Shown: positions 14,101-52,145 of the stretch, piece by piece
How positions within the stretch are numbered: the stretch's first letter is position 1
Layout: each line of letters begins with the position of its first letter
From: Cetorhinus maximus
Taxonomy: Eukaryota
Reading direction: 5' to 3'
Assembly (NCBI RefSeq): GCF_964194155.1
Contig: NC_135909.1
Location: 2,356,001 to 2,420,000, forward strand
DNA length: 64,000 nucleotides
The notes under the pieces: generated by a model
Database searches by the model: none
What the model was told of the DNA's origin: nothing
Seen by the model: only the letters and a program-made list of their open reading frames with translations
Translations under genes and position numbers: made by a program

Positions 14101-16136
14101 TCTGTACAGTTACACAGTGAGTGACCCTTACCCTGAATAAACAGTGACTCTGTACAGTTACACAGTGAGTGACCCTTACCCTGAATAAACAGTGACTCTG
14201 TACAGTTACACAGTGAGTGATCCTTACCCTGCTGAATAAACAGTGACTCTGTACAGTTACACAGTGACAATCCTTACCCTGCTGAACAAACAGTGACTCT
14301 GTACAGTTACACAGTGACAATCCTTACCCTGCTGAATAAACAGTGACTCTGTACAGTTACACAGTGACAATCCTTACCCTGCTGAATAAACAGTGACTCT
14401 GTACAGTTACACAGTGAGTGACCCTTACCCTGAATAAACAGTGACTCTGTACAGTTACACAGTGAGTGATCCTTACCCTGCTGAATAAACAGTGACTCTG
14501 TACAGTTACACAGTGACAATCCTTACCCTGCTGAACAAACAGTGACTCTGTACAGTTACACAGTGACAATCCTTACCCTGCTGAATAAACAGTGACTCTG
14601 TACAGTTACACAGTGACAATCCTTACCCTGCTGAATAAACAGTGACTCTGTACAGTTACACAGTGAGTGACCCTTACCCTGAATAAACAGTGACTCTGTA
14701 CAGTTACACAGTGAGTGACCCTTACCCTGCTGAATGAACAGTGACTCTGTACAGTTACACAGTGAGTGATCCTTACCCTGAATAAACAGTGACTCTGTAC
14801 AGTTACACAGTGAGTGATCCTTACCCTGCTGAATAAACAGTGACTCTGTACAGTTACACAGTGAGTGATCCTTACCCTGCTGAATAAACAGTGACTCTGT
14901 ACAGTTACACAGTGAGTGACCCTTACCCTGAATAAACAGTGACTCTGTACAGTTACACAGTGAGTGACCCTTACCCTGCTGAATAAACAGTGACTCTGTA
15001 CAGTTACACAGTGAGTGATCCTTACCCTGAATAAACAGTGACTCTGTACAGTTATACAGTGAGTGATCCTTACCCTGCTGAATAAACAGTGACTCTGTAC
15101 AGTTACACAGTGAGTGATCCTTACCCTGCTGAATAAACAGTGACTCTGTACAGTTACACAGTGAGTGATCCTCACCCTGCTGAATAAACAGTGACTCTGC
15201 ACAGTTACACAGTGAGTGACCCTTACCCTGCTGAATAAACAGTGACTCTGTACAGTTACACAGTGAGTGATCCTTACCCTGCTGAATAAACAGTGACTCT
15301 GTACAGTTACACAGTGAGTGACCCTTACCCTGAATAAACAGTGACTCTGTACAGTTACACAGTGAGTGACCCTTACCCTGAATAAACAGTGACTCTGTAC
15401 AGTTACACAGTGAGTGACCCTTACCCTGCTGAATAAACAGTGACTCTGTACAGTTACACAGTGAGTGATCCTTACCCTGAATAAACAGTGACTCTGTACA
15501 GTTACACAGTGAGTGATCCTTACCCTGCTGAATAAACAGTGACTCTGTACAGTTACACAGTGAGTGATCCTTACCCTGCTGAATAAACAGTGACTCTGTA
15601 CAGTTACACAGTGAGTGATCCTCACCCTGCTGAATAAACAGTGACTCTGCACAGTTACACAGTGAGTGACCCTTACCCTGCTGAATAAACAGTGACTCTG
15701 TACAGTTACACAGTGAGTGATCCTTACCCTGCTGAATAAACAGTGACTCTGTACAGTTACACAGTGAGTGACCCTTACCCTGAATAAACAGTGACTCTGT
15801 ACAGTTACACAGTGAGTGACCCTTACCCTGAATAAACAGTGACTCTGTACAGTTACACAGTGAGTGATCCTCACCCTGCTGAATAAACAGTGACTCTGTA
15901 CAGTTACACAGTGAGTGATCCTCACCCTGCTGATTAAACAGTGACTCTGTACAGTTACACAGTGAGTGATCCTTACCCTGAATAAACAGTGACTCTGTAC
16001 AGTTACACAGTGAGTGATCCTCACCCTGCTGATTAAACAGTGACTCTGTACAGTTATACAGTGAGTGATCCTTACCCTGAATAAACAGTGACTCTGTACA
16101 GTTACACAGTGAGTGATCCTTACCCTGCTGAATAAA
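5135..16136. repeat. About 11 kb minisatellite, 48-51 bp unit CTG(CTG)AATAAACAGTGACTCTGTACAGTTACACAGTGAGTGA(C/T)CCTTACC, roughly 220 copies, with higher-order blocks
   Basis: Direct reading; copy number is estimated from length divided by unit size. Confidence 0.98.
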
Positions 16137-21553: not shown

Positions 21554-21903
21554 CTTTGAACCCGCAAGCGGCCCTGTCTCAAGTGAGGGAGCGACAGCGC
21601 GTTTTCAACGGCCTTGAGGAGCCCTTCCCCTCCCGCTCCGCTCCGGACACCTCGGCCGAGGGCAGGGCCCCGCCCGCCCCCTGCGCGGGACCCCCTGAGC
21701 CGGCCCCTCCCCGCGCCGAGGGCGACTGCCCGGGCGCCCCGCGGGCCCACGCCCGCCGGGAGGCCGAGCGGGCCGTCCTGCAGAAGCTGGCGTGGGCCAG
21801 CGGCGAGCTGGAGCGGGCCTGCTCCGTGGAGTACAGCTCCCAGCTCTGCGTCTTGATCAGGAACTGCGCCGACTCCTTGCACAGCCTGAAGCGGCTGGCG
21901 TAG
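21554..21903 (+). CDS. ZNRD2: ZNRD2 exon 4, terminal (ALNPQAALSQVRERQ...LQKLAWASGELERACSVEYSSQLCVLIRNCADSLHSLKRLA*)
   Basis: Acceptor tttaatccctcag; matches the SSSCA1 C-terminal helical region; the joined CDS is 603 nt with no internal stop. Confidence 0.95.
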
Positions 21904-22302
21904 TCGCACGCCCAGTGGCCTTCCCGTCTCTCCCCGGCCCCCACCTTGAATCCGCCAGTGCTGTTCCACGCCAGGTCTGCAAGGCGGCCGGGAGGGTTGG
22001 GGTGGGTGGGGTCCCTGTTCTCTGATACACTGGCTCCGTCACACCCTCCCAAGCGATGTGAATGCCCGGCTACGACCTTCTGACCTCCCGCCACATTTAA
22101 TCTTGCCGTATTGGAGACCAATGGGGATTGCCGATGAGGCATCTAGCAGTTAACCGCGTTTATGGAGCTTCAGTCCGCATGGCCTCAAGCCGGGTTGCCA
22201 ACTCAGGCGGAATGTATTCCCGGAGAAAGCATCACTTGAACAACAAACCAACCCAGTCAAAGAGTCCACTTGTTTCTCCCGTCTCCCAATGTTTTTGTAA
22301 CT

Positions 22303-25859: not shown

Positions 25860-26483
<624 letters not shown>

Positions 26484-29607: not shown

Positions 29608-30230
29608 AACACACTGACTCTCACTGGGGTACGGGTCCCACACACGCTGATTCTCACTGGGGTACGGGTCCCACACACACTGACTCTCACTGGGGTACAG
29701 GTCCCACACACACTGACTCTCACTGGGGTACGGGTCCCACACACACTGACTCTCACTGGGGTACGGGTCCCACACACACTGACTCTCACTGGGGCATGGG
29801 TCCCACACACACTGACTCTCACTGGGGTACGGGTCCCACACACACTGACTCTCACTGGGGTACGGGTCCCTCACACACTGACTCTCACTGGGGTACGGGT
29901 CCCACACACGCTGATTCTCACTGGGGTACGGGTCCCACACACACTGACTCTCACTGGGGTACGGGTCCCACACACACTGACTCTCACTGGGGTACGGGTC
30001 CCTCACACACTGACTCTCACTGGTGTACGGGAGGCACACACACTGACTCTCACTGGGGTACGGGTCCCACACACACACTGACTCTCACTGGGGTACGGGT
30101 CCCACACACACTGACTCTCACTGGGGTACGGGTCCCACACACACTGACTCTCACTGGGGCACAGGTCCCACACACACACTGACTCCCACTGGGGTACGGG
30201 TCCCACACACACTGACTCTCACTGGGGTAG
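29608..30230 (+). repeat. 33-bp satellite (ACACTGACTCTCACTGGGGTACGGGTCCCACAC), about 19 copies, in the FAM89B intron
   Basis: Direct reading; it is the reverse complement of the array at 32808-34335. Confidence 0.95.
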
Positions 30231-30949
30231 GGGGGGCGACCAGATCGCAATAATGCACAAACAAATCTATACACGAATGTGTGAGACCAGCCTTAGGCCT
30301 GGAACCAAGATAAGCACAGTGAGTACTCTTGAAGAGCCTGTGCCAGTCCCGGCCTTGTGTGCGATTTGACCTCCCACTTTCTGACTGGTGCTGCGCCTGA
30401 ACGAGCTCCTTGTTTGTCTCTTTGGGATTCAGCAGCTTGTGGTGGAAGTAGGGAGTGTGGAGTTTGGAGCCCGGCAGACAAGAGGGCCTCCAGCCACAGC
30501 TGTTCCTGTTTACTCAGGCTGTGCTGGTATCCGTTTCACGGGGACATTTTGAATAACTTTTAACAGCCAGCTGCAGCAGGCATTGTTACTCTGAACAATG
30601 CCCCCATTCCACTCCCTCCTCTTCCTCTGAGCAAAACTGAGCAGGCTGCAGGGTTCTTTTATTCCTTACCCAGGGCAGCCCTCTCCCCCTCCTCCTCTCA
30701 GTACAGGAACTGCCTCGAGGGGCTGAACAGCCCTCCTCCTGTTCCCGTGCCGCTATAGGGACCGAGCCGCGATCCCGGGTTGCTACCCCTTACCACCCTT
30801 ACTCACTCTTTGCAAGCGGGTCCAGGCTGTGAACTATTCGACTGGGGCGGGGTGGGGGGGCGGCGGCGGTGGTGTGAACATCGCGTTGTCCTGTTCTGAG
30901 TTTAATCTGTGCTTTTAAATGGGTGGGGGTTTGACCGAGCAGGAATCCA

Positions 30950-31986
<1,037 letters not shown>

Positions 31987-32807: not shown

Positions 32808-34335
32808 CATACCCCAGTGAGAGTCAGTGTGTGTGGGAATCGTACCCCAGTGAGAGTCAGTGTGTGTGGGACCCGTACTCCAGTGAGATTCAGTGTGTGT
32901 GGGACCCGTACCCCAGTGAGAGTCAGTGTGTGTGGGACCCGTACCCCAGTGAGAGTCAGTGTGTGTGGGACCCGTAACCCAGTGAGAGTCAGTGTGTGTG
33001 GAACCCGTACCCCAGTGAGAGTCAGTGTGTGTGGGACCCGTACTCCAGTGAGATTCAGTGTGTGTGGGACCCGTACCCCAGTGAGAGTCAGTGTGTGTGG
33101 GACCCGTAACCCAGTGAGAGTCAGTGTGTGTGGGACCCGTACCCCAGTGTGAATCAGTGTATGTGGGACCCGTACCCCAGTGTGAATCAGTGTGTGTGGG
33201 ACCCGTAACCCAGTGAGAGTCAGTGTGTGTGGGACCCGTACCCCAGTGTGAATCAGTGTATGTGGGACCCGTAACCCAGTGAGAGTCAGTGTGTGGGGGA
33301 CCCGTACCCCAGTGAGAGTCAGTGTGTGTGGGACCCGTACCCCAGTGTGAATCAGTGTATGTGGGACCCGTACCCCAGTGTGAATCAGTGTATGTGGGAC
33401 CCGTAACCCAGTGAGAGTCAGTGTGTGTGGGACCCGTACCCCAGTGTGAATCAGTGTGTGTGGGACCCGTACCCCAGTGAGAGTCAGTGTGTGTGGGACC
33501 CGTACCCCAGTGTGAATCAGTGTGTGTGGGACCCGTAACCCAGTGAGAGTCAGTGTGTGTGGGACCCATAACCCAGTGTGAGTCAGTGTGTGTGGGACCT
33601 GTAACCCAGTGTGAATTAGTGTGTGTGGGACCCGTAACCCAGTGAGAGTCAGTGTGTGTGGGACCCGTAACCCAGTGTGAATCAGTGTGTGTGGGACCCG
33701 TAACCCAGTGAGAGTCAGTGTGTGTGGGACCCGTAACCCAGTGAGAGTCAGTGTGTGTGGGACCCGTACCCCAGTGAGATTCAGGATATGTGGAACCCAT
33801 AGCCCAGCGAGAGTCAGTGTGTGTGGGAGCCATACCCCAGTGAGAGTCAGTGTGTGTGGGACCCGTACCCCAGTGAGAGTCAGTGTGTGTGGGACCCATA
33901 CCCCAGTGAGAGTCAGTGTGTGTGGGACCCGTACCCCAGTGAGAGTCAGTGTGTGTGGGACCCGTACCCCAGTGAGAGTCAGTGTGTGTGGGACCCGTAC
34001 CCCAGTGAGAGTCAGTGTGTGTGGGACCCGTACCCCAGTGAGAGTCAGTGTGTGTGGGACCCGTACCCCAGTGAGAGTCAGTGTGTGTGGGACCCGTACC
34101 CCAGTGAGAGTCAGTGTGTGTGGGACCCGTACCCCAGTGAGAGTCAGTGTGTGTGGGACCCGTACCCCAGTGAGAGTCAGTGTGTGTGGGACCCGTACCC
34201 CAGTGAGAGTCAGTGTGTGTGGGACCCGTACCCCAGTGAGAGTCAGTGTGTGTGGGACCCGTACCCCAGTGAGAGTCAGTGTGTGTGGGACCCGTACCCC
34301 AGTGAGAGTCAGTGTGTGGGGGACCCATACCCCAG
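32808..34335 (-). repeat. 33-bp satellite, inverted relative to 29608-30230, about 46 copies, in the probable FAM89B 3' UTR
   Basis: GTGTGTGGGACCCGTACCCCAGTGAGAGTCAGT units. Confidence 0.95.
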
Positions 34336-34624
34336 TTATCTGATCCAGGATTTTGTCTTGTTTTGCTCCTGCAGTCTGCAATGTTATTTGCTGACAATGA
34401 AAACGAGATGATCATTTTCTCAAACAACACTTGGTTAGATGTTGAATAGCATGTTGAAAGACAGGAGTTTTTAATATATATTTGAGACAAATTAATCTGA
34501 ATCCCTGTTTTTCTAGTTTTGTAGTCATTTTAAGTTATATACCATATTATTTTATCACACTACTGCTATAATCACTTATTTACAAATAGATCTTTTTTAA
34601 ATAATATTTCAAATGTGCAGTTTG

Positions 34625-37165: not shown

Positions 37166-38815
37166 TCTTCTGCCACCCTCATCCCAGCCTCTCCCCACGC
37201 CCCCCACAACCACTCTGCAATTTGCTGACCATCGCTTTACATTTCTACCTTTCCTCAGTTCTGATAAAAGATCACGGACCCAAAACGCTGACTCCCGTTT
37301 CTCCCTCCACCGGTGCTGCCCGACCCTGCCGAGTACTTCCCAGCATCTTCCGGCCTTGCGCCGTTAAAGCTAATCTCGGCTCAGAAAGTGCAATTTGGTT
37401 CGAGTTGTCTGGCCAGTGGCTCCTGCAGATTGCAAAACGCGTCAACTTTGGGTTGTAGGTCAACATCTAAAAAAATGCGACAGCCTCGTGTTGGAATATT
37501 ATTTAATAAATTTTAAAAATATATATACACACAGCCGCAACCCCCCCCAACCCCTCCCCTCCCCCAACAAACATTCAAAGACACGGTTCAAACAAATTGA
37601 ATCTGATGCCATTTTACAAGAACAGGAGCATTATACCAGGTGATACGGAATTAACTGTTCTATGGGTAAAGTGGCAACACATCAGCTAAAGCCCGAAAGT
37701 CTAACGTCATTGAGTAAACCCAGACTCGGGTCAGTCAGAGTTCAATTGCAGGCTGGAACGGGCCCGATCAGATTCCGGTCGTAGCCGTCGACTGCAGCTC
37801 ATTTCGAAAGGGCCAGGGCGGCCTCTGGCCAACGGCAAGATCCTTGCGAGCGAGCGCACGCGGCGCTTTCGATGTGGACGCCGCGGAGTCACAGCGCCCG
37901 GGCTTGAGTTCGCTGGAACGGACGGGGAGGAATCGAGCGCGTCATTCTTGGCTTCCTCGAACTTTCAGACGGTTAACTTCCGAGCTCAAAATTATGCAGG
38001 GGGGCCAACTAACCAGTGGAAAGCAATGGGAATTTTGTACAGTCGAGCTTGGTAGACACGGCCAATAGCATTTAATTTAATTCGATGAGCGCTTTTGTTT
38101 TTATATAAATTTGGGCTTATTATTTCTGCATCCAAAAAAAGGGGACTTTATGTTAAGCTGATAGTCGCTGGCAATTAAGTGTATAAGAATACTCCTTCCT
38201 TAGAGGTAAGCATTGTAATGTTTAATTAATTTCACCAAGCTTTTGTTGAATAATTGAGATGCCATTGGTCTGGTGTTTTAAGGGCACCGTGTAAATCTGA
38301 TCTCGTTGTGGGTAGAATTAGCTGCGACAGCCAAGGGTCAGGCGGGCAAGCTCAAAAGGCAGACCAGAGTTTGAGATCGAGCTAAACTGCACGACGAAAC
38401 GGCGGGGGGTGAAGGGAAAATAGTTCACTGGGGGGGGGGGGACCACTGGAGAAGGTGCGGACGGGGGAGCTGTGTGCACAGGAGTGGCGCTTGCCGTCAC
38501 GGGGGTTTTTGGCACGTGTGGCAGTGCCTTTCCCCGTTAAGCTCGTGGCACAGGGGCCTTGACAGCGACGGGTGTCGTGCTGCACGAAACAGAGACAGCA
38601 AGAGAAAGGAGCGAGGAAATAAGACAGAGAGGCGCGCGGATGTTACTGAAATGAAGTGGGGACAGGGTGGTTGAAAACAAATCTACATTTCTAACCAGGG
38701 TCAGTCCTCGTGTCGTATGTCAACGTTAGCATATCTGGGTGTGACAAAGTGACGGCAGAAACTCCAACACGTAACTCCGGAAAGAAGTGTTGGGCACCGC
38801 TAATGAGGGTTAGTT

Positions 38816-41457
38816 TTACACCATAGAGGGACAGGAACTGGCATCTTGATTTGGAGGGACATAATGACGTGGGGCAGGATATGGCGAGTGCGTTTTAATG
38901 TTCGCCTTCAGCCGAGCAGTGGCCAAGACAGGGGGTGTGTGTCTCAGACCAAACTGAACATTCGTTCCCGGGATGGGTGTTTTTAACAGGCCAGGCTGGG
39001 GACTTCCCCTCTGGGTGGGGGTATTTAGCAGGCCGGGTTGGGCACCCATTCTCAGGGTGGGGGTATTTAACAGGCCGTTTCGGGCATTCATTCCCAGAGC
39101 GGGGGTATTTAACAGGCCGGACTGTGCACTCGTTCTCAGGTTGGGTGTTTTTAACAGGCCTGATTGGGCACTCATTCTTGGGACGGGTGTTTTTAATGCG
39201 CCTGATTGGGCACTCGTTCCCGAGGCGGGTGTTTTTAATGCGCCTGATTGGGCATTCGTTCCCGGGCTGGGTGTTTTTAACACGCCTGATTGGGCACTCG
39301 TTCCCGGGCTGGGTGTTTTTAACACGCCTGATTGGGCACTCGTTCCCGGGCTGGGTGTTTTTAACGCGCCTGATTGGGCACTCGTTCCCGGAGCGGGTGT
39401 TTTTAACGCACCTGATTGGGCATTCGTTCCCGGAGCAGGTGTTTTTAACGCACCTGATTGGGCACTCGTTCCCGGGGCGGGTGTTTTTAATGCACCTGAT
39501 TGGGCACTCGTTCCCGGAGCGGGTGTTTTTAACGCGCCTGATTGGGCACTCGTTCCCGGAGTGGGTGTTTTTAACGCGCCTGATTGGGCACTCGTTCCCG
39601 GAGCGGGTGTTTTTAACGCGCCTGATTGGGCACTCGTTCCCGGGGCGGGTGTTTTTAACGAGCCTGATTGGGCACTCGTTCCCGGAGCGGGTGTTTTTAA
39701 CGAGCCTGATTGGGCACTCGTTCCCGGAGCGGGTGTTTTTAACAAGCCTGATTGGGCACTCGTTCCCGGAGCGGGTGATATCAACGGGCTGGAATGGGCA
39801 CGTGTTCCCGGGCTGCGAGTTTTTAACAAGCCGGATCGAGCACGCTCTCTAAGAGTGGGGGTATTTAACAGGCCGGAGTGTGCGCTCATTCGCAGAGCGG
39901 GGGTATTAAACAAGCCGGATTGGGCACTCTCTCCCGGAGCGGGGGTATTTAACAGGCCGGACTGTGCACTCATTCGCAGAGCGGGGGTATTAAACATGCC
40001 GGATCGGGCACTCTCTCCCAGAGCAGGGGTATTAAACAGGCCGGACTGTGCACTCATTCGCATGGCGGGGGTATTTAACAGGCCGGACTGTGCACTCATT
40101 TGCAGAGCGGGGGTATTTAACAGGCCGGACTGTGCACTCATTCGCAGAGCAGGGGTATTTAACAGGCCAGACTGTGCACTCATTCGCAGAGCAGGGGTAT
40201 TTAACAGGCCGGACTGTGCACTCATTCGCAGAGCAGGGGTATTTAACAGGCCGGACTGTGCACTCATTCGCAGAGCAGGGTTATTTAACAGGCCGGACTG
40301 TGCACTCATTCGCGGAGCGGGGGTATTTAACAGGCTGGACTTTGCACTCATGCCCAGAGCAGGGGTATTTAACAGGCCAGATTGGGTACTCTCTCCCAGA
40401 ACAGGGGTATTAAACAAGCCAGATCGGGCACTCATTCTGAGAGTAGGGGTATTTAACTGGCCAGACTGTGCACCCATTCCCAGAGCAGGAGCATTTAACA
40501 GGCTGGACTGTGCGCCCATCTTGAGAGCGGGGGTATTTAACAGGCAGGACCGTGCACTCATTCCCAGGGCGGGGGTGTTTAACAGGCCGGATTGGGTACT
40601 CTCTCCCAGAGTGGGGGTATTTAACAAGCCAGATCGTGCACCCATTCCCAGAGTGGGAGTATTTAACAGGCCAGACTGTGCACCCATTCCCAGAGCGGGA
40701 GTATTTAACAGGCCAGACTGTGCACCCATTCCCAGAGCGGGAGTATTTAACAAGCCGGACCGTGCACTAATTCCCAGCACAGGAGTATTTAACAGGCCAG
40801 ACTGTGCACCCATTCCCAGGGCGGGAGTATTTAACAGGCCGGACTGTGCACCCATTCCCAGAGCGGGAGTATTTAACAAGCCGGACCGTGCACTCATTCC
40901 CAGGGCGGGGGTATTTAACAAACCGGATCTGGCCCTTTTGGCGGGGGTAGGTTTATCCTGCGGCATTTTCCTCTTTATGGGTTTCCTGTTTTCCAGCTTT
41001 GAGGCAGGAGTTCGAGGGAGGCGGACACGGTGGTACAGGGAGCTGCTTTTGGCGAGAATCGATGTGAATTGCCGCTGGAACCGGCTGCCCCCGTGCATGC
41101 AGTGGGTGGGTACAGGCTGAGAGCGAGGCAGAGCTTTGGGGCAGAGCTGCTCATAATAATCGACGTAGTGCTTGGCAGCCTTGTCACGTCCATAGTCCGG
41201 GGGACAGCGAGGGTAACATGGCGTTTGCTGGCCATACCTAACTAGGGAATCACCTGGTGCCCAAGTGCATTCTGCGGCCTGGTGGCTTGGTCTTCCACAC
41301 CGCTGACAACTTTCCACCACACCGCTGGCAGATTGTGGCATGGTGCTCGCTTTGGAAGGCAGAGCGCTAATCTTCTTCCCCCTGAAGTCAGCAAGATCCA
41401 TCTTGTTAATGGCTTTCAGTGCTTCCTCCTCAGGGTCCCTGTGTGCAAACGCATAAT
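38816..41457 (-). CDS. RBM14/RBM4-exon-2-derived protein: C-terminal half RRM, CCHC zinc knuckle, NLS-like motif and about 48 x 14-aa repeats (861 aa from ATG 41401, plus 18 open codons upstream)
   Basis: (CT)n-cag acceptor, then AT TAT GCG TTT = (D)YAFAHRDPEEEALKAINKMDLADFRGKKI...CQRCGRPSHQAAEC, colinear with exon 2 at 48568. The frame stays open for 2.6 kb. Confidence 0.8.
38930..40935 (-). repeat. 42-bp coding tandem repeat (SAQSGLLNTPALRM / SAQSGALKTPAPGT)
   Basis: Diverged units with strict 42-bp periodicity and no frameshift. Confidence 0.95.
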
Positions 41458-41465
41458 CTGAGAGA

Positions 41466-41507
<42 letters not shown>

Positions 41508-41619
41508 AGGAGGTTTAATTAAATGTCAGCTCACTGGGCATGTGAAACTGCGCCAAGATTTGACCCTTGTTCTCTGACTGGTTTGGGACGATAATCTTTT
41601 GCTCAGCCTTCATAAAGCA

Positions 41620-44575
41620 CTGGTCTGATCAGAGCTGGAGCGCTCTGTCAAACTCTGGGCATCACACTTCAGGAATGACAAGGCCTTGGAGAACGTTCAG
41701 AGGAGATTTGCTCAAATGATCTCGGGGGTGGAGGGGGGGCGGGTGGCGGTGAAGGAAATTTATGAGGAGAGAGTAGATTTACCAGAGTGAATCGTCAACT
41801 CCAAGGATTAAGCTACAAGGAAAGAAGACACAAGCTAAGGGTGTATTCCTGGAATTTAGCAGGGAAAGGGATGCTTTGGTTGTAGTTTTTGAGATATGAA
41901 GGGGGACAGAGAGAGAGAGAGAAACTAGTTCCGTTAGTTGGAATGTGTAAAAGTAAGAGCCAGACCTTTCAGGAGTGAGATTAGGAAACACTTCCACACA
42001 CAAAGGGTGGGGGAAGTTTGGAAGCGGCAATTAACGATGGATTAATTTTTAATTTTAAATCTCAAGAATTGCCGATTTGCAGTAACCCTTTTGCATTAAG
42101 GGATAAGGGGCAAAAGTGAGTCCTTTATTTTATTCCTCATGGGGTGTGGGTGTCGCTGGCAAGGCCAGCATTTGCTGCCCATCCCTAATTGCCGCTTGGA
42201 CTGAGTTGCTTGCTAGGCCATTTCGGGGGTCTGGAGTCACGTGTAGGCCGGACCAGGTAAGGACGGCAGATTTCCTTACCTGAAGGACATTAGTGAACCG
42301 GGTGGGTTTTTACAACAATCAATGATAGTTGCCGTGGTCACCATTACTGAGACTGGCTTTCAGTTCCAGATCTTATTCATTGAATTTAAATTCCACCAGC
42401 TGCTGTGGCGGGATTCGAACCCCTGTCCCCAGGGCATTAGCCTGGGCCTCTGGGATTGCTAGTCCAGTGACATAAGCAAAGCGTCACCGTCTCCCCCATA
42501 GATATATGGAGCTAGGCTGCAGGTCAGTCATGTTCGTACCGAATGGCAGCAGAACAACCTCAATGGGCAGAATGGCCTCCTCCTGTCCCTATGGAGAAAC
42601 TGGGATCGCTCACCTTAAAAGCAGGGAAGGCTAGGGAGAGATTTAAAAGATGGGCTCGACGTTATGATGAGATTTGGAAAGGTCGGGCGGTTGGGTCGGG
42701 GGAGAACCTGTTTCCAGACAGGAACCAGAGGACAGATTTAAGAAAAGCAACTAAAGAACCAGAGAGTTTTTTTTTTTGTTAAATGCAATGTGTTGCTGTG
42801 AACTGGAATGCACTGCCTGAAAGGCCCAGGAGGGCAGCTAATGCATGCATTTCACACTCTCCAGAGGTCTGGTCAATAGCAACTTCAAAACCCAATGAAA
42901 GTGGAGTCAGGGTTGGCCATGTAGGTCATTAGGTAGGAGGCCAAGAAGGCATATGGGAAACTTACCTTTATGAGCTGAGGCATAGAATGGAACAGCTGGG
43001 AGGTAATGCTGGAACTTGGGTCACCATTGACCAGAAACTGAACTGGACCAGCCATATAAATATGGTGACTAAAAGAGCAGGTCAGAGGCTGGGAATCCTG
43101 TGGCGAGTAACTCACCTCCTGACTCCCCAAAGCCTGCCCACCATCTACAAGGCACAAGTCAGGAATATGATGGAATACTCTCCACTTGCCTGGGTGAGTG
43201 CAGCTCCCACAAACACTCAAGAAGCTTGATAGCATCCAAGGCAAAGCATCCCACTTGAGTGGCACCCCATCCACAAACATTCACTTCCTCCACCACTGAC
43301 GCACAGTGGCAGCAGTGTGTGTACCATCTACAAGACGCACTGCAGAAACTCACCAAGGCTCCTTCAGCAGCACCTTCCAAACCCATGACCACTACCATCT
43401 AGAAGGACAAGGGCAGCAATCACTCACCATCCTAGCTTGGAACTATATCGCCATTCCTTCACCATCGCTGGGCCAAAATTCTGGAACTCCCTCCTAAGCG
43501 GCACTGTTCTTATCTTAAACCTATGTTCCTGGTTTTGGAGCCCTCACCTAAGGAGACCAGAGCCTTCCTATCTTCTCTATCTAGAGCCGTCTAAATGTTA
43601 TGCACTCTAATTATGTCACCCCTCAGCTTCCTCTGTTCCAAAGAAAACAACTGGAACCTATTCAATCTTTCCTCATATCTAACATTCTCCAGTCCAGGCA
43701 ACATCCTTGTAAATCTCCTCTGGACCCGACCTGGTACATTCACATCTTTCCTATAGAGCAGTTCCCAGGACTGCACACAGCACTCCAGCTGTGGCCTAAC
43801 TCATCTTTTACACAGATTTTAAAAAATTCATTCATGGGTGTCGCTGGCTAGGCCAGTATTTAATGCCCATCCCTAAGTGCCCTTGAGAAGGTGGTGGTGA
43901 GCCACCTTCTTGACCCACTGCAATCCATGTGGTATAGGCACACACCCACAGTGCTGTTAGAGAGGGAGTTCCAGGATTTTGACCCTGTGACATTGAAGGA
44001 ACGGTGATATATTTCCAAGTTAGTATGGCAAGTGGCTTGGAGGGGAACTTTCAGGTGGTGCTGTTCCCCTGTATCCGCTGCCCTTGTACTTGTGGTTGGT
44101 AGACGGTGCAGAGGAGATTCACCAGGATGTTGCCTGGGCTGGAGCGTTTCAGATACGAAGAGAGACTAGATAGGCCAGGGTTGTTTTCCTTAGAGCAGAG
44201 AAGGCTGAGAGGGGACCTGATAGAGGTATACAAAATTATGAGGGGCATAGATAGGGTAGATAGAAAGAAACATTTCCCCATTACGGAGGTATCAATAACC
44301 AGGGGGCACAGGTTTAAGTTAAGGGGCAAGCGTTTAGAGGGGATTTGAGGGAAATTTTTTTCTCCCAGAGGATGGTTGGAATCTGCTGCCTGAGGGGTGG
44401 TAGAGACAGGAACCTTCACAGTATTTAAGAAGTATTTAGATGAGCACTTGAAACACCATAGCATACAGGGCTACGGGCCAAATGCTGGAAAATGGGATTA
44501 AAATAGATAGTTGCTTGATGGCTGGCACAGACACGTTGGGCCGAAGGGCCTGTCTCTGTGTAGTATAACTCTATG
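41620..44575. mobile_element. Mosaic of LINE/SINE fragments (CR1 3' ends on both strands, CR1/L2-type fragments, SINE) filling the intron of the minus-strand RBM paralogue
   Basis: QRRFTRMLPGLE-type ORF pieces at 43591-43776 and 44106-44348; LNWTSHIN/RVTHLLTP piece at 43010-43400; SINE at 42125-42490. Confidence 0.75.
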
Positions 44576-44859
44576 AGATGGCGAGTTTGGAAGGTGCTGT
44601 CAATTGAAAATTTCAAAATAGATCTTCCACACAAAAAAAATGGATTCTTGCTCATTTAATAAATCTAATTATTGCCAGCCCAGTGTATTAAAGGGAGCCA
44701 AGGCCTGTGAACGGGGTTATGATTCACAGCGGGTTTCAATGATTGAATGGCAAAACAGGCTCCTCCCAAGGGGCAATGGCGGCTGGCGCCCGCTGCCTGT
44801 GACGTCACCATGAAACCCCTCTATCCACCGGGAGGGGGCGGGACGAACCGACCTCTCAC

Positions 44860-45060
44860 CTTTGACTCGGTCTCTCGGGCCTGACACCCCGAAAGGGGTC
44901 TCCTTGAAGCTCCTGTTGTCCAGCGGCGGGGACCGTGGCCTTAACTGACTGTCCGGCTTCGGGAAGAAGGAGGGCGGGTCGCTCGATCACGTTCGCATTC
45001 TCTCATGCACGCCAGGGACCGCGAAGAGGACTCAAAATGGCCGCCACCCCGTGGCGGCGC
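44860..45060 (-). other. Candidate first exon of the minus-strand RBM paralogue (5' boundary approximate)
   Basis: Ends ...CGA GTC AAA G|gtgaga, the same VK-G phase-1 junction as plus-strand exon 1. The frame is open for 42 codons back to TGA 44989-44987 with no ATG. Confidence 0.55.
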
Positions 45061-45464
45061 TGCCCCGCCTCCTTGAGCGACAGCCCGCCGTACCAATCGG
45101 AGCGCCCGTCGGCCCCTTCCCTGCAGGGGCGGCTGCCAATCAGAGGGCGGTATGTGTGACATCCCCTTCCGGTGGGCGGAACGGCGTAGGCGGCGGGGCC
45201 CCGCCTCCCTCGAGCGGAAGTGGGGTGGCAGGCCCTGAGGAGGAGGAACGCGTCGGCTGATTGGCCACACGTCGGCCAGGCCGGCTGCGATTGGTCAGAG
45301 GGGCCGTCAGTCAATAATGAAGGCGGCCTTTCCCCTTCCCTCCCCGCTCGGACGAACGGTCAGGACCGGCGCCATTTTGTGGAAGCCCCGTGAGGTGATT
45401 CGGAGGGGGGGCGGGGAGAGAGCGAGAGAGAAATCGATTAGAACCGAGAGGGGAGGGGGCAAAA
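45030..45464. promoter_or_regulatory. CpG-island bidirectional promoter
   Basis: YY1-like CAAAATGGCCGCC 45033-45045; CCAAT 45093 and 45136; ETS CTTCCGG 45166 and GCGGAAGTG 45214; ATTGG 45260 and 45290; YY1-like GCGCCATTTTG 45369-45379; several GC boxes. Confidence 0.8.
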
Positions 45465-45795
45465 ATGAAGATCTTCGTGGGGAACATACCGAGCGACGGC
45501 ACGGTGGACGAGCTGCGGACCCTGTTCGAGTACTACGGCACGGTGCGGGAGTGCGACATCATCCGGCATTACGGCTTCGTGCATATGGAGAGCGCCGAGG
45601 AGGCGAACCAGGCCATTGCCGCGCTCAACCAGTACGAGCTGCACGGCCAGAAGCTCAACGTGGCTGAGTCGCGGCCCCGGCCCGCCGCCGTCACCAAGGT
45701 CTACGTCGGCAACCTGGCGCCCGGCTGCAGCAACCAGGAGCTGCGGGCCAAATTCGAGGAGTACGGCCGGGTGCTGGAGTGCGACATCGTCAAAG
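45465..45795 (+). CDS. RBM14: RBM14/RBM4-family gene exon 1 (RRM1 and first half of RRM2)
   Basis: MKIFVGNI...YGFVHM...SRPRP...KVYVGNL...ECDIVK G|gtgatg. The MKIFVGN start and the intron position are RBM14-like; the symbol is tentative versus RBM4. Confidence 0.85.
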
Positions 45796-45859
45796 GTGAT
45801 GGCGGCCGATAGACAGGGCTTTCCCGGTGACGTCAGCGCAGCACGCAGCCCCCCCCCCC

Positions 45860-46870
45860 CCTCCCCATTCATCATCTTCATCATCCCCCCCCCATTCATC
45901 ATCTTCATCACCCCCCCATTCATCATCTTCATCACCCCCCCCATTCATCATCTTCATCACCCCCCCATTCATCACCACCACTCCCCCCATTCATCATCTT
46001 CATCACCCCCCCATTCATCATCTTCATCACCCCCCCATTCATCATCTTCATCACCCCCCCATTCATCATCTTCATCACCCCCCCATTCATCATCTTCATC
46101 ACCCCCCCATTCATCATCTTCATCACCCCCCCATTCATCATCTTCATCACCCCCCCATTCATCATCTTCATCACCCCCCCATTCATCATCTTCATCACCC
46201 CCCCATTCATCATCTTCATCACCCCCCCATTCATCATCTTCATCACCCCCCCATTCATCATCTTCATCACCCCCCCATTCATCATCTTCATCACCCCCCC
46301 ATTCATCATCTTCATCACCCCCCCATTCATCATCTTCATCACCCCCCCATTCATCATCTTCATCACCCCCCCATTCATCATCTTCATCACCCCCCCCATT
46401 CATCATCTTCATCACCCCCCCCCATTCATCATCTTCATCACCCCCCCATTCATCATCTTCATCACATCCCCATTCATCACCACCCCCCCCCCTATTCACC
46501 ATCACCACCCCCCCCATTCACCATCACCACCCCCCCGTTCACCATCACCACCCCCCCGTTCACCATCACCACCCCCCCCGTTCATCATCACCACCCCCCC
46601 GTTCATCATCACCACCCCCCCGTTCATCACCACCCCCCCATTCATCATCACCCCCCCCCCCCATTCACCATCATCACACCCCCCCCATTCACCATCATCA
46701 CCCCCCCCACCCCAATTCATCATCATCTACCCCCTGTTTATCATCATCGCCCCCCCCACCCCGTTCATCTTCATCATCATCAACCCCCCCCCCGTTCATC
46801 ATCATCAACTCCCACCCCCCCCCCCCCAAACACCACCTCATTCATCATCACACACCACACACACACACAC
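45860..46870. repeat. 24-bp tandem repeat CCCCCCCATTCATCATCTTCATCA decaying into CAT/CAC-rich low complexity
   Basis: Direct reading; it starts about 65 nt after the exon 1 donor. Confidence 0.95.
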
Positions 46871-48137
46871 CCCCCATCCCACCCATTTTGAGGAGACAGG
46901 AGGATGTTCAGCCCACTCCTGTACCCATTAGGGTGGCAGGAGGCCATTCAGTCCCGTCGCCCCCCCACCCCCGAATTGGGGCAACAGGAGGCCATTCTGT
47001 CCTCCCCCCCCTGCCCCCTTGTATTGGGGCAGCAGGATGCCATTTAGCCCCCCCCCCCCCCCCCACCACCAATCTCCTGACTCTTCTTCAAAACAGCAGC
47101 TGTGGGATCCTTCATGTCCTCCGGATGGGGTCTTAGATTTTTTTAAGCATCCCATCCGCGAGACACCGCCTCCCTCAGTACTGCTGAGAGAGGTTGTGGA
47201 GAGATGAGTCAGAACGTAAATCTGGGAGTGTGGGAAGAAATTTCTGTCTTTCCTGTTTTATTTTTTCACACACAATCCTCCATCTAGGACTGTGGGGATT
47301 TGTCTAGACACCAGCATATCATGGATGTAAATCCCCATTTTCTGCGGTTGAACCTTCACTTTCGAACATCTTACATCCCCCCCAATGGCACCAACTCATG
47401 CAGTTCTGTCACTGCTGGGTTTGGCCAACCCTCGTGTGACCCCGCATGGTGCGACTTGACAAACCGTTCGCCCGGGGAGCAGGCCGCGACTAAATTTACC
47501 TTGTCGGCGCTGACGCAAATCTGCTTTCTGGCCAGTGGCCGAAAAGTCGCCGGATAGCCGAACGCAGTCCTGTGCGCGCACGTGCACTTCCAAGGTTTTA
47601 GGCGCGTTGGCGGCCACCAAAATGGCAATCGCTGGCAGCAGTTCTGGCTGAGTGTCCCATCCTGAGCTGATGGAAGCCGAAGCTCGTGGTGGCAGCCAGG
47701 CTCCCAGTCCCCCTGAGACTGGCATTTTCCTGATCGGTATGGCCCAGCGACGCTGGTTCAGAAAACCGAGACTCCGTCCTAAACGTTTTGCGTTAGCTCC
47801 CGACAATTCCTCTTCGTTTGGGTCTGGAGACGCGAACCTCCGGCCTTGGTTGCAGAAGCCGGATAATTGGGATCAAGTCCTTTTGTTGGAAAAAGTGTTG
47901 GCTGGCTGTTTAAGAACAGGCTGCAGAAGGAATTGCCACAATTCAATGACATTACAAAGAGTTTCCAGTAAGGAAACAGGCCCAGAAGTAAGTTTGACAA
48001 TTTATATAAGGGAGCGTGTGCGATAATGATAGACTTAGTATAAAGCTGGTGAGACAGAAGAACAATTTGAACCTTTTCCGACAAGGATATAATGGTTTTT
48101 CTAAATCCAATGACCCTGAATTGTATATATATTTTTT

Positions 48138-48310
48138 AAAAAGCAAAGAAGTATTGCAGATGCTGGAAGTCTGAAATAGAGGAAAGAAAATGCTGGAAAT
48201 ACTCAGCAGGTCTGGCAGCATCCAGGGAGAGAAAGAGAGTTAACATTAAACTTTGTTTCGCTCCACAGATCCTGCTGAGTACTTGCAGCAATTTTTTATT
48301 TTTAACTTTG
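48138..48310. mobile_element. Degraded Penelope-like inverted fragment
   Basis: GCTGGAAATACTCAGCAGGTCTGGCAGCATC followed by inverted TCCACAGATCCTGCTGAGTA; same family as 1484-1786. Confidence 0.6.
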
Positions 48311-48567
48311 TGACCATGGGTTGTGTTTATGTAGAACATTACAACGATCGGCCCAACGCCACACCAGCCTCCTCTCACCCTTTCAGAATATTCTCTCTTC
48401 CATATTCCCTCGTGCTTATCTAACTTCCCCAGAAAGGTTAGTGGGCACCGTGTGAAACGGTGTCTCAGCGTCAGGTATGGCTCCCCTCCATTAGTTTGCC
48501 AGCACCAGGGCAAGTACGTAAGGCCCTGTTACCGTGACGTTTAAACTATACTCTTTTCGCTCCACAG

Positions 48568-49060
48568 ATTACGCCTTTGTGCACATGGAGAAGGAGGAAG
48601 ACGCCGTCCAAGCGATTACCAACCTGGACGAGAAGGAATTCAACGGGAACAAGCTCAGGGTGCAGCTCTCCCGGTCGACCTACGGGAAATCTGGTGGGCA
48701 ACGGGATGTCTGCCAGCGCTGTGGAAGGCAGGGGCACCAGGCGCGAGATTGCCACTCGGCGCGCTATAATCAGTACAGCCAGTACCAGTTCCAATCCCAA
48801 TATTACCCCTCTTACTATTCGTATTACGACTACGACTATGGCCACGGCTCCTATTACGACTATTACGAAGATTACCAGGCCGCGGGCGCCGCCGCAAGTT
48901 ACACGCCGCTCGATTACGTGAGGGAGAGGAGTCCAAACCGCCTAAGCACATCTGCGGCGGCGGCGGCCAACAGCTGCACCCTGTACGAACGCACCCGTCT
49001 GTCGCCACTCACTGTGCCAAAATATCAGAACGAGAAATTCATAGACGATAGCATCAGTAG
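48568..49060 (+). CDS. RBM14: RBM14/RBM4-family gene exon 2 (rest of RRM2, CCHC knuckle CQRCGRQGHQARDC, Tyr-rich segment, YERTRLSP)
   Basis: Acceptor ttttcgctccacag|AT TAC GCC TTT; donor AGTAG|gtatgt in phase 2. Confidence 0.88.
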
Positions 49061-52000
49061 GTATGTATCCGTTGCAGGCAAAAACACGGGGAGTAAGGGG
49101 GCCTGTGAGGCTTCTCAGCCAGTGGGTGGGGGTGAGGAAGGTGCAGCCTGGCCTGCCATTAATGTAACTTGTCTCTCCACTCCCACATGGAATTCTGAGC
49201 CACCCGCTGAAGACTCTTCCCTTGGCAGCGCCCTGGTTTCGGAGCGGTAGTGCCAGCTCGGGTGTCCTGTGGGCTCCACAGTAAGTAACACAGATCCTAA
49301 TGCTGGCGTGGAGCGGTATACGTTGTGCCGGTGAGAGACAAGTCTGCTTGCCCCCTAGCTGTGGGCGCTTTTGCTTTTTAACTTCTGGTTGTAAATTTAC
49401 CAGATTCTTTAGCGTGTCAACCGTGCAGTTCGAGAGCACGGTTGCCGGGGAATAATTATATACTAATCAGATCAGTCCGCGCAAAGCTGCAGGGAGATAG
49501 GCAGCAGCTCTGCTATAGCTTCTAAAACCTTTGTGGCCGAGGTTGTGTCTGGAGAGAGTGTTGTGTGCTGTGGAATGCACTTTGTTACCCTTTCAGAGGC
49601 GCTGGTAGACTGCGCACTTATCTTTCTTACCACCCTGACGAAATGTTGCTGGAAGTTGTTGACTAATCATAGGAAGCGATCTATCGGTTTCTCAACCTTA
49701 GACCCATTCACGACCTGAGAAAAACCCTCCCAGTGATGCAGAGCTTTGGGACACTAAGGCCTTATAGAGGGCGTAAAACTGATTTATTCACATGGTGCCA
49801 GGGATGAAACATTTCGGGTGAGAACAGAGAAGTTGCTGGGGTTGCTCTCCTTCCAGCAGAGAAGTTTAAGGGAGAGATTTGATGGAGGTGTTCAAAATCA
49901 CAAAGGGGTTTTGACCAAGAGTGTATTGGGCAGCTGGTTCAGGGAGCCGGCATGAGCACGAAGGGCCGAATGGCCACCTCCTAGATGATTCAGTTGTGGT
50001 GTGGTTGTTTCATCGTGTGTCCTGAGCGAGTTTTGCTTTGATGAAAGGAGTAAGTTCTCACTGTCTGAAGGACTGGTCATCGCTTGGAGAGCACCATTTG
50101 ATTTGATCGAAAGTGTCCATTTTATTTCACAGCTGCAGAAGGGATTTTGTGGGAACCATAGACATGTTCATAATTCCAGAGGTTCCTGCAGAATGCCCTT
50201 ACAAGAGGCACCACCTCCTTAACTTGAGTGTCTTCCACTAACTAACAAGCCTTGTGTAATGAAAGCAAGTTTCAGAAGACTTACTAAACTTGAGCAAATT
50301 CTCTCAAAGGTAACAGAGAGCAGATTGCGACAGTATCTTTTGCAGTAGTCAGGCACTCTCAGAACCCTGGATCGATATGCAGAAGCCCTGTCACGTTGCA
50401 TTCAGTGAAATGAAATGGGGAGAGTGTGAAGTATTTAGCTCCGCGCTCATTTAAACTGTATGAAACATCCAGGGTTTACAATTCTAGTTTGCCTTCCCAG
50501 TGCGGGTTGCTTCTAGATGTGAAAAGGTGAGGTCAAGTCTTAGTGAGACCGCCTGTAAATTCTGGAAAGCCACTAGCCTGTTCCACTGACCAATTCTAAA
50601 AGGTGTGGCTATCTCGGAGAGTCTCGTCGGTACTGTACTACTTTTACAGAATATCTGTTTCCTGGGTAGGTTGCTCTGAGTGTTCCCTTGTTGAAAATTA
50701 GTTATTTTTTTAACCTCCCAATTACCTATACGCTAACTTCTCAGCTCTGAGTGACGATGGCCAGGGTGGAGGTCGGACTCTGTTGTGGTCGTGGGAGTTG
50801 CTGTTTATAAAGATGATGTGAGATCTCTCGGTGGGGCGGGGTGGGGGGCAGATACATTCACTACGAGGAATTGCGAGCAAGCTGACATTTGTGGCCACTT
50901 GGCATCAGATTGGCACTCTCAGTGGTGATTGGCATTGTGAACAGTTGTGACTTCCTTCAACACTCGGGTTCGAATGGTGAAGGGGGGGGTGTTGTAACGT
51001 CAGTGAGCTTGCCTCTCTATTTGCGCAATGTTTGGGGCATCCCCTGGAGTTGTGTGTGACGATTGTGGGTCAAATTTTCAAATTATATCCTTCAAATCAG
51101 GTGCCTCTTTATCTCACGGATTAGTTTCATGTGTTTTGTCAGGAGCCTCTCTCTGTCTTAATTGCACCTGCCCACACCAGGATGCTGCAGCCTCGCGTTC
51201 TCCATGAAGAATCCCAGTCGCCTGCAAGGCTGCTTGCTTAAGAACCTTCTCTTTCCCCCGACCTCCTACCCGCAGACACAGCCCTGAGTTGCATTCCCTA
51301 CTTTTGCAGAAGTGTCTTCACTCAGGTATGCAATATAAAACAGGGGAACGGTCCATCTGTTTCCCCTTTCCCCTGAATTCTCCCCTAGTACTCCCTGAAC
51401 TGAACAACATTTCATAGACTGGGGAGTGGGCAGGTGACTTGTGCCCGGACCTGTGCCAGACATGGTGTACCCTTCGCTGGCTGGTACAGCACGGGGCCTG
51501 TTGATCCTCACCGCCTGACATTTCTCCTGTCCAAAGGCTCCCCAAGTCTAGCAACTTGTTTCCCGTCTCCCTCCGCTGTACAACCACACAACTCTTTACC
51601 TTCTGAGAGATCACAAAACATTTGAATAGTATTGTGTATTAATGATGAGATTCCCTCATGGCTATAGCTGGGGGCAGACACTACTGCCCAAGGTGACTGA
51701 CAGCTCAGGAGGTCTTGGAGCGCTTCACAGCCAGTGAAGTACTTTTAAGGTGTGGTGGCTTGAAGCATGGGGAAGCACAGTAGTCAGGTAATGCACAGCA
51801 AGCTCCCTGTCTTGTGTATCAGAAACCCCATCCTGGCTGGAGCCTGTGGGGAGGGATTGGGACAGGAGAGTGCCGGGATGTCCTGTTTACGGTTTCTCGA
51901 TTCGGTATCGAGGAGGCACATTTTAAAACAAAAAAGCATAAAGGCCTCGTCCACCACCCCCACCCCCAGCCCCACCCCCACCATTTGCAGCCCTCTATAT

Positions 52001-52093
52001 TTGGTTCCACCCTGGCTCCTCCCTCGGTGAATGCATGAGCGACTTTTCCTTTCCGGCCAGCCCTGTATTGACATAATGTGCTTTTTCTCTTAG

Positions 52094-52145
52094 GTATGAT
52101 CAGTTTGACTACGATAATACCACCGACACCCGCTATGCCCAATGA
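52094..52145 (+). CDS. RBM14: RBM14/RBM4-family gene exon 3 (R-YDQFDYDNTTDTRYAQ*)
   Basis: Acceptor ctttttctcttag|G TAT GAT in phase 2; the R|Y junction parallels RBM14 exon 2/3 as recalled. Confidence 0.7.

Follow-up and report, generated by a model that had tools for sequence, protein, structure and literature searches.

RBM4 (Lark) and RBM14 (CoAA) are the closest described relatives of the locus considered here. As far as the available text of the sources goes, RBM4 has two N-terminal RRMs and a knuckle, followed by a variable low-complexity tail (PMC3602429), and Rbm14 combines two RRMs with a Tyr-dependent disordered tail, both of which are needed in zebrafish (PMC6796953). Two further systems come close at the level of short motifs: the SHI motif of the methyltransferase SETD2, KVLLPTP, which attaches to the back of hnRNP L/LL RRM2 by its Leu pair and its Pro-Thr-Pro (PMC8575775), and the PRI motif for PTB RRM2 of Raver1 and Matrin3, of which Raver1 has four copies (PMC4365034).

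The window, a stretch of 64,000 nucleotides from Cetorhinus maximus (contig NC_135909.1, positions 2,356,001 to 2,420,000), contains a minus-strand gene next to a plus-strand gene of the RBM14/RBM4 family. The minus-strand copy shares with RBM14 and RBM4 a homologous RRM2 end, the knuckle region, a Tyr-bearing segment and the YERTRL block. Unlike them, it lacks an RRM and the RD/ERSP site, its Tyr-rich segment is eroded and its knuckle dispensable; it has instead a new start codon and a predicted nuclear signal, and its 14-aa array follows the YERTRL block rather than preceding it. Where RBM4 has the RD/ERSP phosphorylation site described in the accessible part of PMC3602429, the RERSP of the parent aligns to HGGSR in the copy. 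The copy holds 8 Tyr compared with 22 in the homologous segment of the parent, and 9 in all of its 861 residues. Since two RRMs were not found (no Pfam RRM, a non-coding exon 1 and an RRM remnant that is broken in relatives), the gene is regarded as a derivative of the RBM4/RBM14 family, not a member. It is very probably a real gene: a spliced gene shared across distant sharks and apparently undescribed.

The parent gene (45465-52145, plus strand) has coding exons at 45465-45795, 48568-49060 and, presumably, 52094-52145, and specifies two RRMs, a knuckle, RERSP, a Tyr-rich segment and YERTRLSP. On the minus strand, the ORF listing of the window gives a stop-to-stop open frame of 900 codons (38816-41518). 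The acceptor (CT)22-CAG|ATTAT ends at 41458, and exon 2 begins at 41457 in phase 1; parent exon 2 opens at 48568 with CAG|ATTAC, in phase 1 too. Parent exon 2 matched the window in tblastn with 32.9% identity over 161 aa (E 2.7e-19), an alignment that contains every motif pair on which a sequence-only reading of this DNA had based the colinearity of the two exons, and the exon-2 DNA alignment scored 230, against 96.6 +/- 10 (maximum 143.5) in 200 shuffles. A search with parent exon 1 (8 matches) indicates that the genome carries seven RBM4/14-family genes; among these seven, the intron after ‘ECDIVK’ of RRM2 was seen in the neighbour only, the others reading through. Homology together with the shared intron position and phase identifies the minus-strand gene as a derivative of the adjacent gene, that is, on these comparisons, as a head-to-head inverted duplicate that retained the parent's intron-1 position. 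As judged from the N-terminal 180 aa, which matched only the locus itself and its neighbour (42 candidates scored, 3.99-Gb genome), it is single-copy in this genome. The sequence-only reading had called the duplicate lineage-specific; the inverted duplication of the neighbour stands, but carpet-shark orthologues make it older and wider than one lineage.

The family assignment of the parent itself is less clear-cut. Three of its features, the position of the intron, the SRPRP linker and YERTRLSP, are presumably RBM14 traits. In a PDB search, RBM4B domains scored higher (77-87 bits) than the RBM14 entry (63 bits), and the label ‘RBM14-like’ is therefore provisional. The parent mixes a CCHC knuckle and RERSP, traits of RBM4, with a Tyr-rich segment and YERTRLSP, presumably traits of RBM14, and it is possibly near the ancestral form. 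Two more head-to-head pairs of this family occur, at C22:21,395,2xx (minus) / 21,419,5xx (plus), where the plus copy is of a diverged RBM4 type, and at C32:7,117,368 (minus) / 7,125,398 (plus), where a single open frame encodes both RRMs, the tails are rich in proline and a knuckle is absent. Inverted pairing seems to be recurrent for the family in this genome.

Exon 1 (44860-45059, minus strand) reads as a non-coding, decayed copy of parent exon 1. Its donor GTCAAAG|GTGAG at 44860/44859 resembles GTCAAAG|GTGAT of the parent at 45795/45796, and the first ~60 nt of intron 1 resemble the start of parent intron 1 (GGTGACGTCA element). The junction similarity was reached by 3 of 5000 shuffles, for a region picked after the similarity had been seen; over the whole exon the similarity to parent exon 1 is weak and was matched by 2 of 500 shuffles. 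Intron 1 (41458-44859, minus strand; 3402 nt, GT..AG) is filled with high-copy repeats. Between the two genes lies a CpG-rich divergent region (45042-45400; GC 0.65-0.68, CpG observed/expected 0.84-1.04), which is probably a shared bidirectional promoter; the GCCATTTT motif, which in exon 1 lies at 45034-45041, is present on each strand.

A minus-strand transcript was looked for in public runs, and contigs splicing exon 1 to exon 2, with intron 1 skipped, were found in relatives. Four runs, from three related species that are ~4% diverged, were aligned to 40930-45300; that these runs are RNA is an automatic guess, and the splice evidence is that of the related species, not of C. maximus. A single record joins exon 2 to 44860-45059 (X3) or to 44860-45041 (X15); X5 shows equal depth on both exons, its listed record being the exon-2 piece only, and X10 covers ~130 nt only, so that splicing has support from 3 of the 4 runs. 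Contigs of the one run from C. maximus itself (X16) gave no match at the locus. Formally, the spliced contigs could also stem from a processed copy in the genomes of the relatives. Record 10 of X6 has 1939 letters 5' of window position 41457, compared with ~200 in X1, X3 and X15; this long part may be a longer first exon, a retained intron or a fusion with the divergent transcript.

The distribution of changes among the relatives points to MDLADF (41401) as the likely start of translation. Exon 1 has no in-frame ATG and carries a stop 42 codons before its donor. The 56 nt upstream of ATG 41401 (41402-41457, minus strand), which form the 5' part of exon 2 and hold the remnant of an RRM2 strand (DYAFAH...KAINK), contain an inserted in-frame TAA in organism A; in organism B they have lost 1 nt and gained 3 nt, so that the frame is shifted. 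Thus, 3 indels fall into these 56 nt in 2 of 3 relatives, against 0 indels or stops over the following 167 codons in 3 of 3; stops and frameshifts in the orthologous frame, named beforehand as possible counter-evidence, did not appear there. This ATG lies in the context AAG ATG G, and 5 of 5 aligned proteins have the Met; the parent has CTG (Leu) at the aligned codon, and a CTG-to-ATG change would have created the new start. The RRM remnant had been read as coding. Given the upstream stop and frameshift and the absence of an exon-1 ATG, the DYAFAH/EEEALKAI match probably represents a fossil within the UTR; a 5'UTR with uORFs would be what decay has left of exon 1 and the RRM2 strand. Three short uORFs precede the start (ATG 45006, 21 codons, and ATG 44998, 3 codons, in exon 1; ATG 41454, 12 codons, in the 5' part of exon 2) and may limit translation.

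The predicted coding sequence (38816-41401) and all features within it lie on the minus strand. A CCHC knuckle spacing, C-x2-C-x4-H-x4-C (41267-41308), is unbroken in this species as well as in 3 of 3 close relatives; it scores 12.3 bits with Pfam zf-CCHC, below the cut-off of 20.8. The first two Cys are lost in 4 of 4 carpet-shark proteins, and retention of the knuckle as a trait of the family is not supported. Further downstream follow the conserved block SLYHR(V/F)RLP (41015-41041), derived from LYERTRLSP according to alignments to parent and orthologues; a predicted bipartite nuclear localisation signal, KRKMPQDKPTPAKRAR (40928-40975), situated where the parent exon splices out and showing the KRK-x10/11-KR pattern in 5 of 5 proteins; 48 tandem 42-nt / 14-aa units, SGLL(N/K)TP(A)(L/P)G(M/T)SAQ (38912-40927); and a C-terminal block KAN(I/L)KxH...APRH (38852-38908), which is found in 3 of 4 carpet-shark proteins and absent from P0002. 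The putative 3'UTR (37700-38815, end not fixed) is suggested by contigs of relatives (X1, X6, X15) that run 1.1-1.4 kb past repeat unit 44 if colinearity is assumed; the polyadenylation-type signals ATTAAA (37507) and AATAAA (37166) lie downstream. The predicted protein has no Pfam RRM match, and no second RRM exon was found upstream on the minus strand; with the knuckle dispensable, sequence-specific RNA binding is unlikely.

That the duplicate gained a new low-complexity tail was borne out. Near the parent exon-2 donor AG|GTATG, the copy has the weakly aligned AG-GATAA, which fits loss of the donor and read-through. Such read-through would have added the nuclear signal and turned a 42-nt minisatellite into coding sequence. 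A satellite origin of the repeat was considered, as 187 protein-level matches occur in the genome, and rejected: three of the other loci were compared (C1031, L009, L012), and these proved to be 45- and 42-bp satellites of unrelated sequence without a DNA match to the array. No remnant of parent exon 3 was detected downstream of the copy (score 30 versus 31 +/- 4). Together with the missing DNA match to the three satellites, this indicates that the repeat likely arose in place.

The array keeps exact register from 40927 to 38912, only the last two of its units being degenerate, and TRF reports 45.5 copies with 0% indels. The sequence-only reading had given weight to ~2 kb of repeats without a stop despite many substitutions. 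Units and register were confirmed, but the openness proves nothing: the chance of no stop among 66 distinct variants is 0.07-0.10. The antisense frame is likewise open, with none of its 637 codons a stop, and two frames of a 33-bp array elsewhere in the window, which is unrelated, stay free of stops for 45-46 units. A synonymous excess first counted in the array (29:37, p 0.005-0.03) was dropped because ties had favoured synonymous steps; unbiased tests gave 22:44 (p 0.39) and 18:26 (p 0.11), neither significant. From this and the stop-free control array it follows that the open array alone is no proof of coding.

The arrays used as open-frame control are related 33-bp repeats at 29609-30233 and 32810-34336, of opposite orientation by their TRF units, which flank the second of two plus-strand exons (25860-26200 and 31700-31986) resembling what is presumably FAM89B; the first of these exons has no relevant Pfam match. 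Elsewhere in the window, an 11-kb minisatellite (5137-16136) of mixed 48- and 51-nt units, with exactly repeated higher-order blocks, has long open frames on the minus strand, and a GC-rich open frame of 187 codons (21579-22142, minus strand) with WACDYASRFRLCKES...WELY gave only a 0.14 Pfam match.

Among 8000 scored candidates (proteins of 30-482 aa), the window protein found three matches (E 5e-78 to 7e-69), in the carpet sharks Chiloscyllium plagiosum (LOC122543839; 56% identity), Stegostoma tigrinum (LOC125449303; 50%) and C. punctatum (55%); a fourth, from Hemiscyllium ocellatum (LOC132836336), was obtained by cluster look-up. The four entries (LOC122543839, LOC125449303, LOC132836336 and GCC21275.1), RefSeq/UniRef models of 382-397 aa all named ‘uncharacterized’, are gene models rather than observed proteins and likely represent orthologues. 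All four begin with MKAINKMDLADF and keep SLYHRFRLP and the bipartite KRK...KR signal. Their 14-aa spacing is mostly exact over ~16 units (12-14 scored), which are more diverged than those of the window. Among proteins of 483-1539 aa, 0 of 568 scored candidates were homologous, and a profile search over proteins of 302-2000 aa returned only the same three among 7999 scored. No ray, chimaera or bony-fish relative was present among the candidates scored, which is weak evidence.

Over the N-terminal 167 codons, 33 sites differ, 14 synonymously and 19 non-synonymously, corresponding to an omega of 0.44-0.61 (p 0.017-0.107, the weaker end resulting from a fitted transition bias of 28:5). The proposed dN/dS check gives a weak synonymous excess in the N-terminus and no significant one in the array. 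The coding case is carried by a frame and blocks kept in distant sharks and by breaks that cluster upstream of the start, not by the array. As to the earlier description as a candidate undescribed gene, no account of it was found in the literature searched, to which subscription journals largely did not belong and in which two hits concerned rbm48 and rbm46; the gene is, however, already present in RefSeq/UniRef in the form of the unnamed LOC models.

What might the repeats do? In the carpet-shark units, the best-kept columns are L (22/27), L (21), G (18) and P (18), with T at only 14, counts for which units were picked by a profile of the window's own units and which include one spurious match. 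The window protein contains 25 LLxTP, each orthologue 1-3 LLxTP and 5-7 LLxxP. The closest described motif is that of SETD2, with which the units share a Leu-Leu-x-Thr-Pro core in a low-complexity nuclear protein; unlike the single motif in a methyltransferase, the shark protein has up to 25. According to the part of PMC8575775 available, Tyr257 of hnRNP L contacts Leu2189 and Pro2192 of SETD2, and Lys(-2) and Asn(-5) of SETD2 form hydrogen bonds with RRM2. All nine pocket residues named there, and D255, are identical in the hnRNP L exons of this genome, in which RRM2 is split over separate exons; Y204, V210, I214, A249, S250, L251, N252, D255, I256, Y257 and L263 are kept by spacing. Three hnRNP L-like genes were noted, two of them ~40 kb apart at C33:9,498,000-9,552,000 and one at C14:23,002,000.

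Because G-L-L-x-x-P is the best-kept part of the unit, SETD2 has the closest motif and the receptor pocket is conserved, it is tentatively proposed, as a plausible reading by analogy, that the tandem GLLxTP units offer hnRNP L-type RRMs a multivalent dock, which proline-directed phosphorylation would switch. The Leu-Leu-x-Thr-Pro core would bind the back face of hnRNP L/LL RRM2 much as SETD2 LLPTP does, the protein would gather or sequester hnRNP L-type splicing factors, and kinases of the CDK/MAPK type would turn docking off by phosphorylating the TP sites. Some features speak against docking: the exact LLPTP with its upstream Lys/Asn contacts was not matched, the units reading Q-S-G-L-L-(N/K)-T-P with N/K at the SETD2 Pro and without Lys(-2) and Asn(-5), and 16 of 47 window units have another residue in place of the first Leu (A 9, S 2, V 2, others). 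More doubtful than docking itself is the further step to a protein blind to RNA that serves hnRNP L-type factors as a polyvalent sponge or scaffold, with up to ~48 docking units whose occupancy is set by phosphorylation and whose number varies between lineages. Other known motifs fit less well. Raver1 and Matrin3 are alike in a Gly-Leu-Leu start with a downstream Pro; unlike the shark proteins, they keep their own RRMs, and the PRI consensus [S/G][IL]LGx(phi)P, as given in the accessible text of PMC4365034, had 0 matches in 5 of 5 shark proteins. The FBXW7 phosphodegron T-P-P-x-S/T, taken likewise from the available text of PMC8955265, also had 0 matches in 5 of 5.

The repeats could, possibly but doubtfully, be a generic basic polymer, phosphorylated in the cell cycle, that covers chromatin or RNA or gives rise to condensates in the nucleus and has no specific RRM partner. 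In favour of such a role, the predicted protein (861 aa, 87 kDa) has a pI of 11.44 (10.0-10.7 in the carpet sharks) and 56 S/T-P sites, 17 of them TPxxK/R, and TP is kept in 44-46 of 47 window units, Leu-Leu being lost in a third. Ki-67, nucleolin and histone H1 tails are the models for this idea. To judge from its composition (66% P, G, S, T, A, Q, N; 2% aromatic), the protein is probably disordered, although FoldIndex calls only 25% of windows unfolded, and the parent family acts via a phase-separating disordered tail in the available text of PMC6796953. In the carpet-shark proteins, however, the S/T-P sites number no more than 6-8 and Thr is less well kept than Leu-Leu-x-x-Pro, and the Tyr that drive Rbm14 phase separation drop from 22 to 8 in the homologous segment.

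It is unlikely that the function resides in the N-terminal blocks (SLYHRxRLP and the nuclear signal) or with another partner and that the repeats are a tolerated spacer; the protein might then, for example, compete with RBM14 for an import factor or partners. In favour of such a reading, identity across orders is 48-56% over the N-terminal 172 aa, which include invariant blocks, a shared promoter would co-express the protein with its parent, and unit number varies threefold, from ~16 in carpet sharks to 48 in the window. A spacer need not, however, preserve the 14-aa register and the GLLxxP core, as 4 of 4 distant proteins do while their unit number varies.

Quite improbable is a spliced non-coding RNA or slowly decaying pseudogene off a bidirectional promoter, its frame a by-product of a stop-free minisatellite. 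Non-coding-looking arrays in the window also have long open frames, the gene has three uORFs and a weak synonymous excess, and its orthologues are gene models; on the other hand, a by-product would hardly stay unbroken over 382-397 codons, and keep start region, signal and register alike, in four species where identity is down to about half, or show indels and a stop only upstream of the start. Largely refuted is the reading as an RBM4/14 paralogue whose entire exon is translated, giving an RRM remnant, a working RNA-binding knuckle and a new tail: the frame is open from the acceptor in C. maximus, the knuckle ligands are intact in the close relatives and the long X6 record leaves room for another first exon, but neither a Pfam RRM, an upstream RRM exon nor an in-frame exon-1 ATG was found, 2 of 3 relatives (the X6 contig included) have the stop or frameshift upstream of 41401, and the carpet sharks have lost the knuckle.

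Genes are known to arise by duplication and exonisation. The present case is well resolved, as parent and daughter still lie head to head and each step is legible in the sequence: decay of an exon to UTR, a new start codon, a lost splice donor and an exonised minisatellite. The family, unnamed and kept across shark orders, has a sub-threshold knuckle as its sole Pfam trace; a PDB profile search with the predicted protein returned 0 matches, and the ESM Atlas clusters had no usable match for the whole protein or its residues 120-420. If the dock for hnRNP L-type RRMs proposed above is real, the repeats would present in a natural polyvalent array a motif that has so far been described in single copy. 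Repeat number would then be linked to splicing control in cartilaginous fish, and a minisatellite would have supplied a species-tunable dial on alternative splicing.
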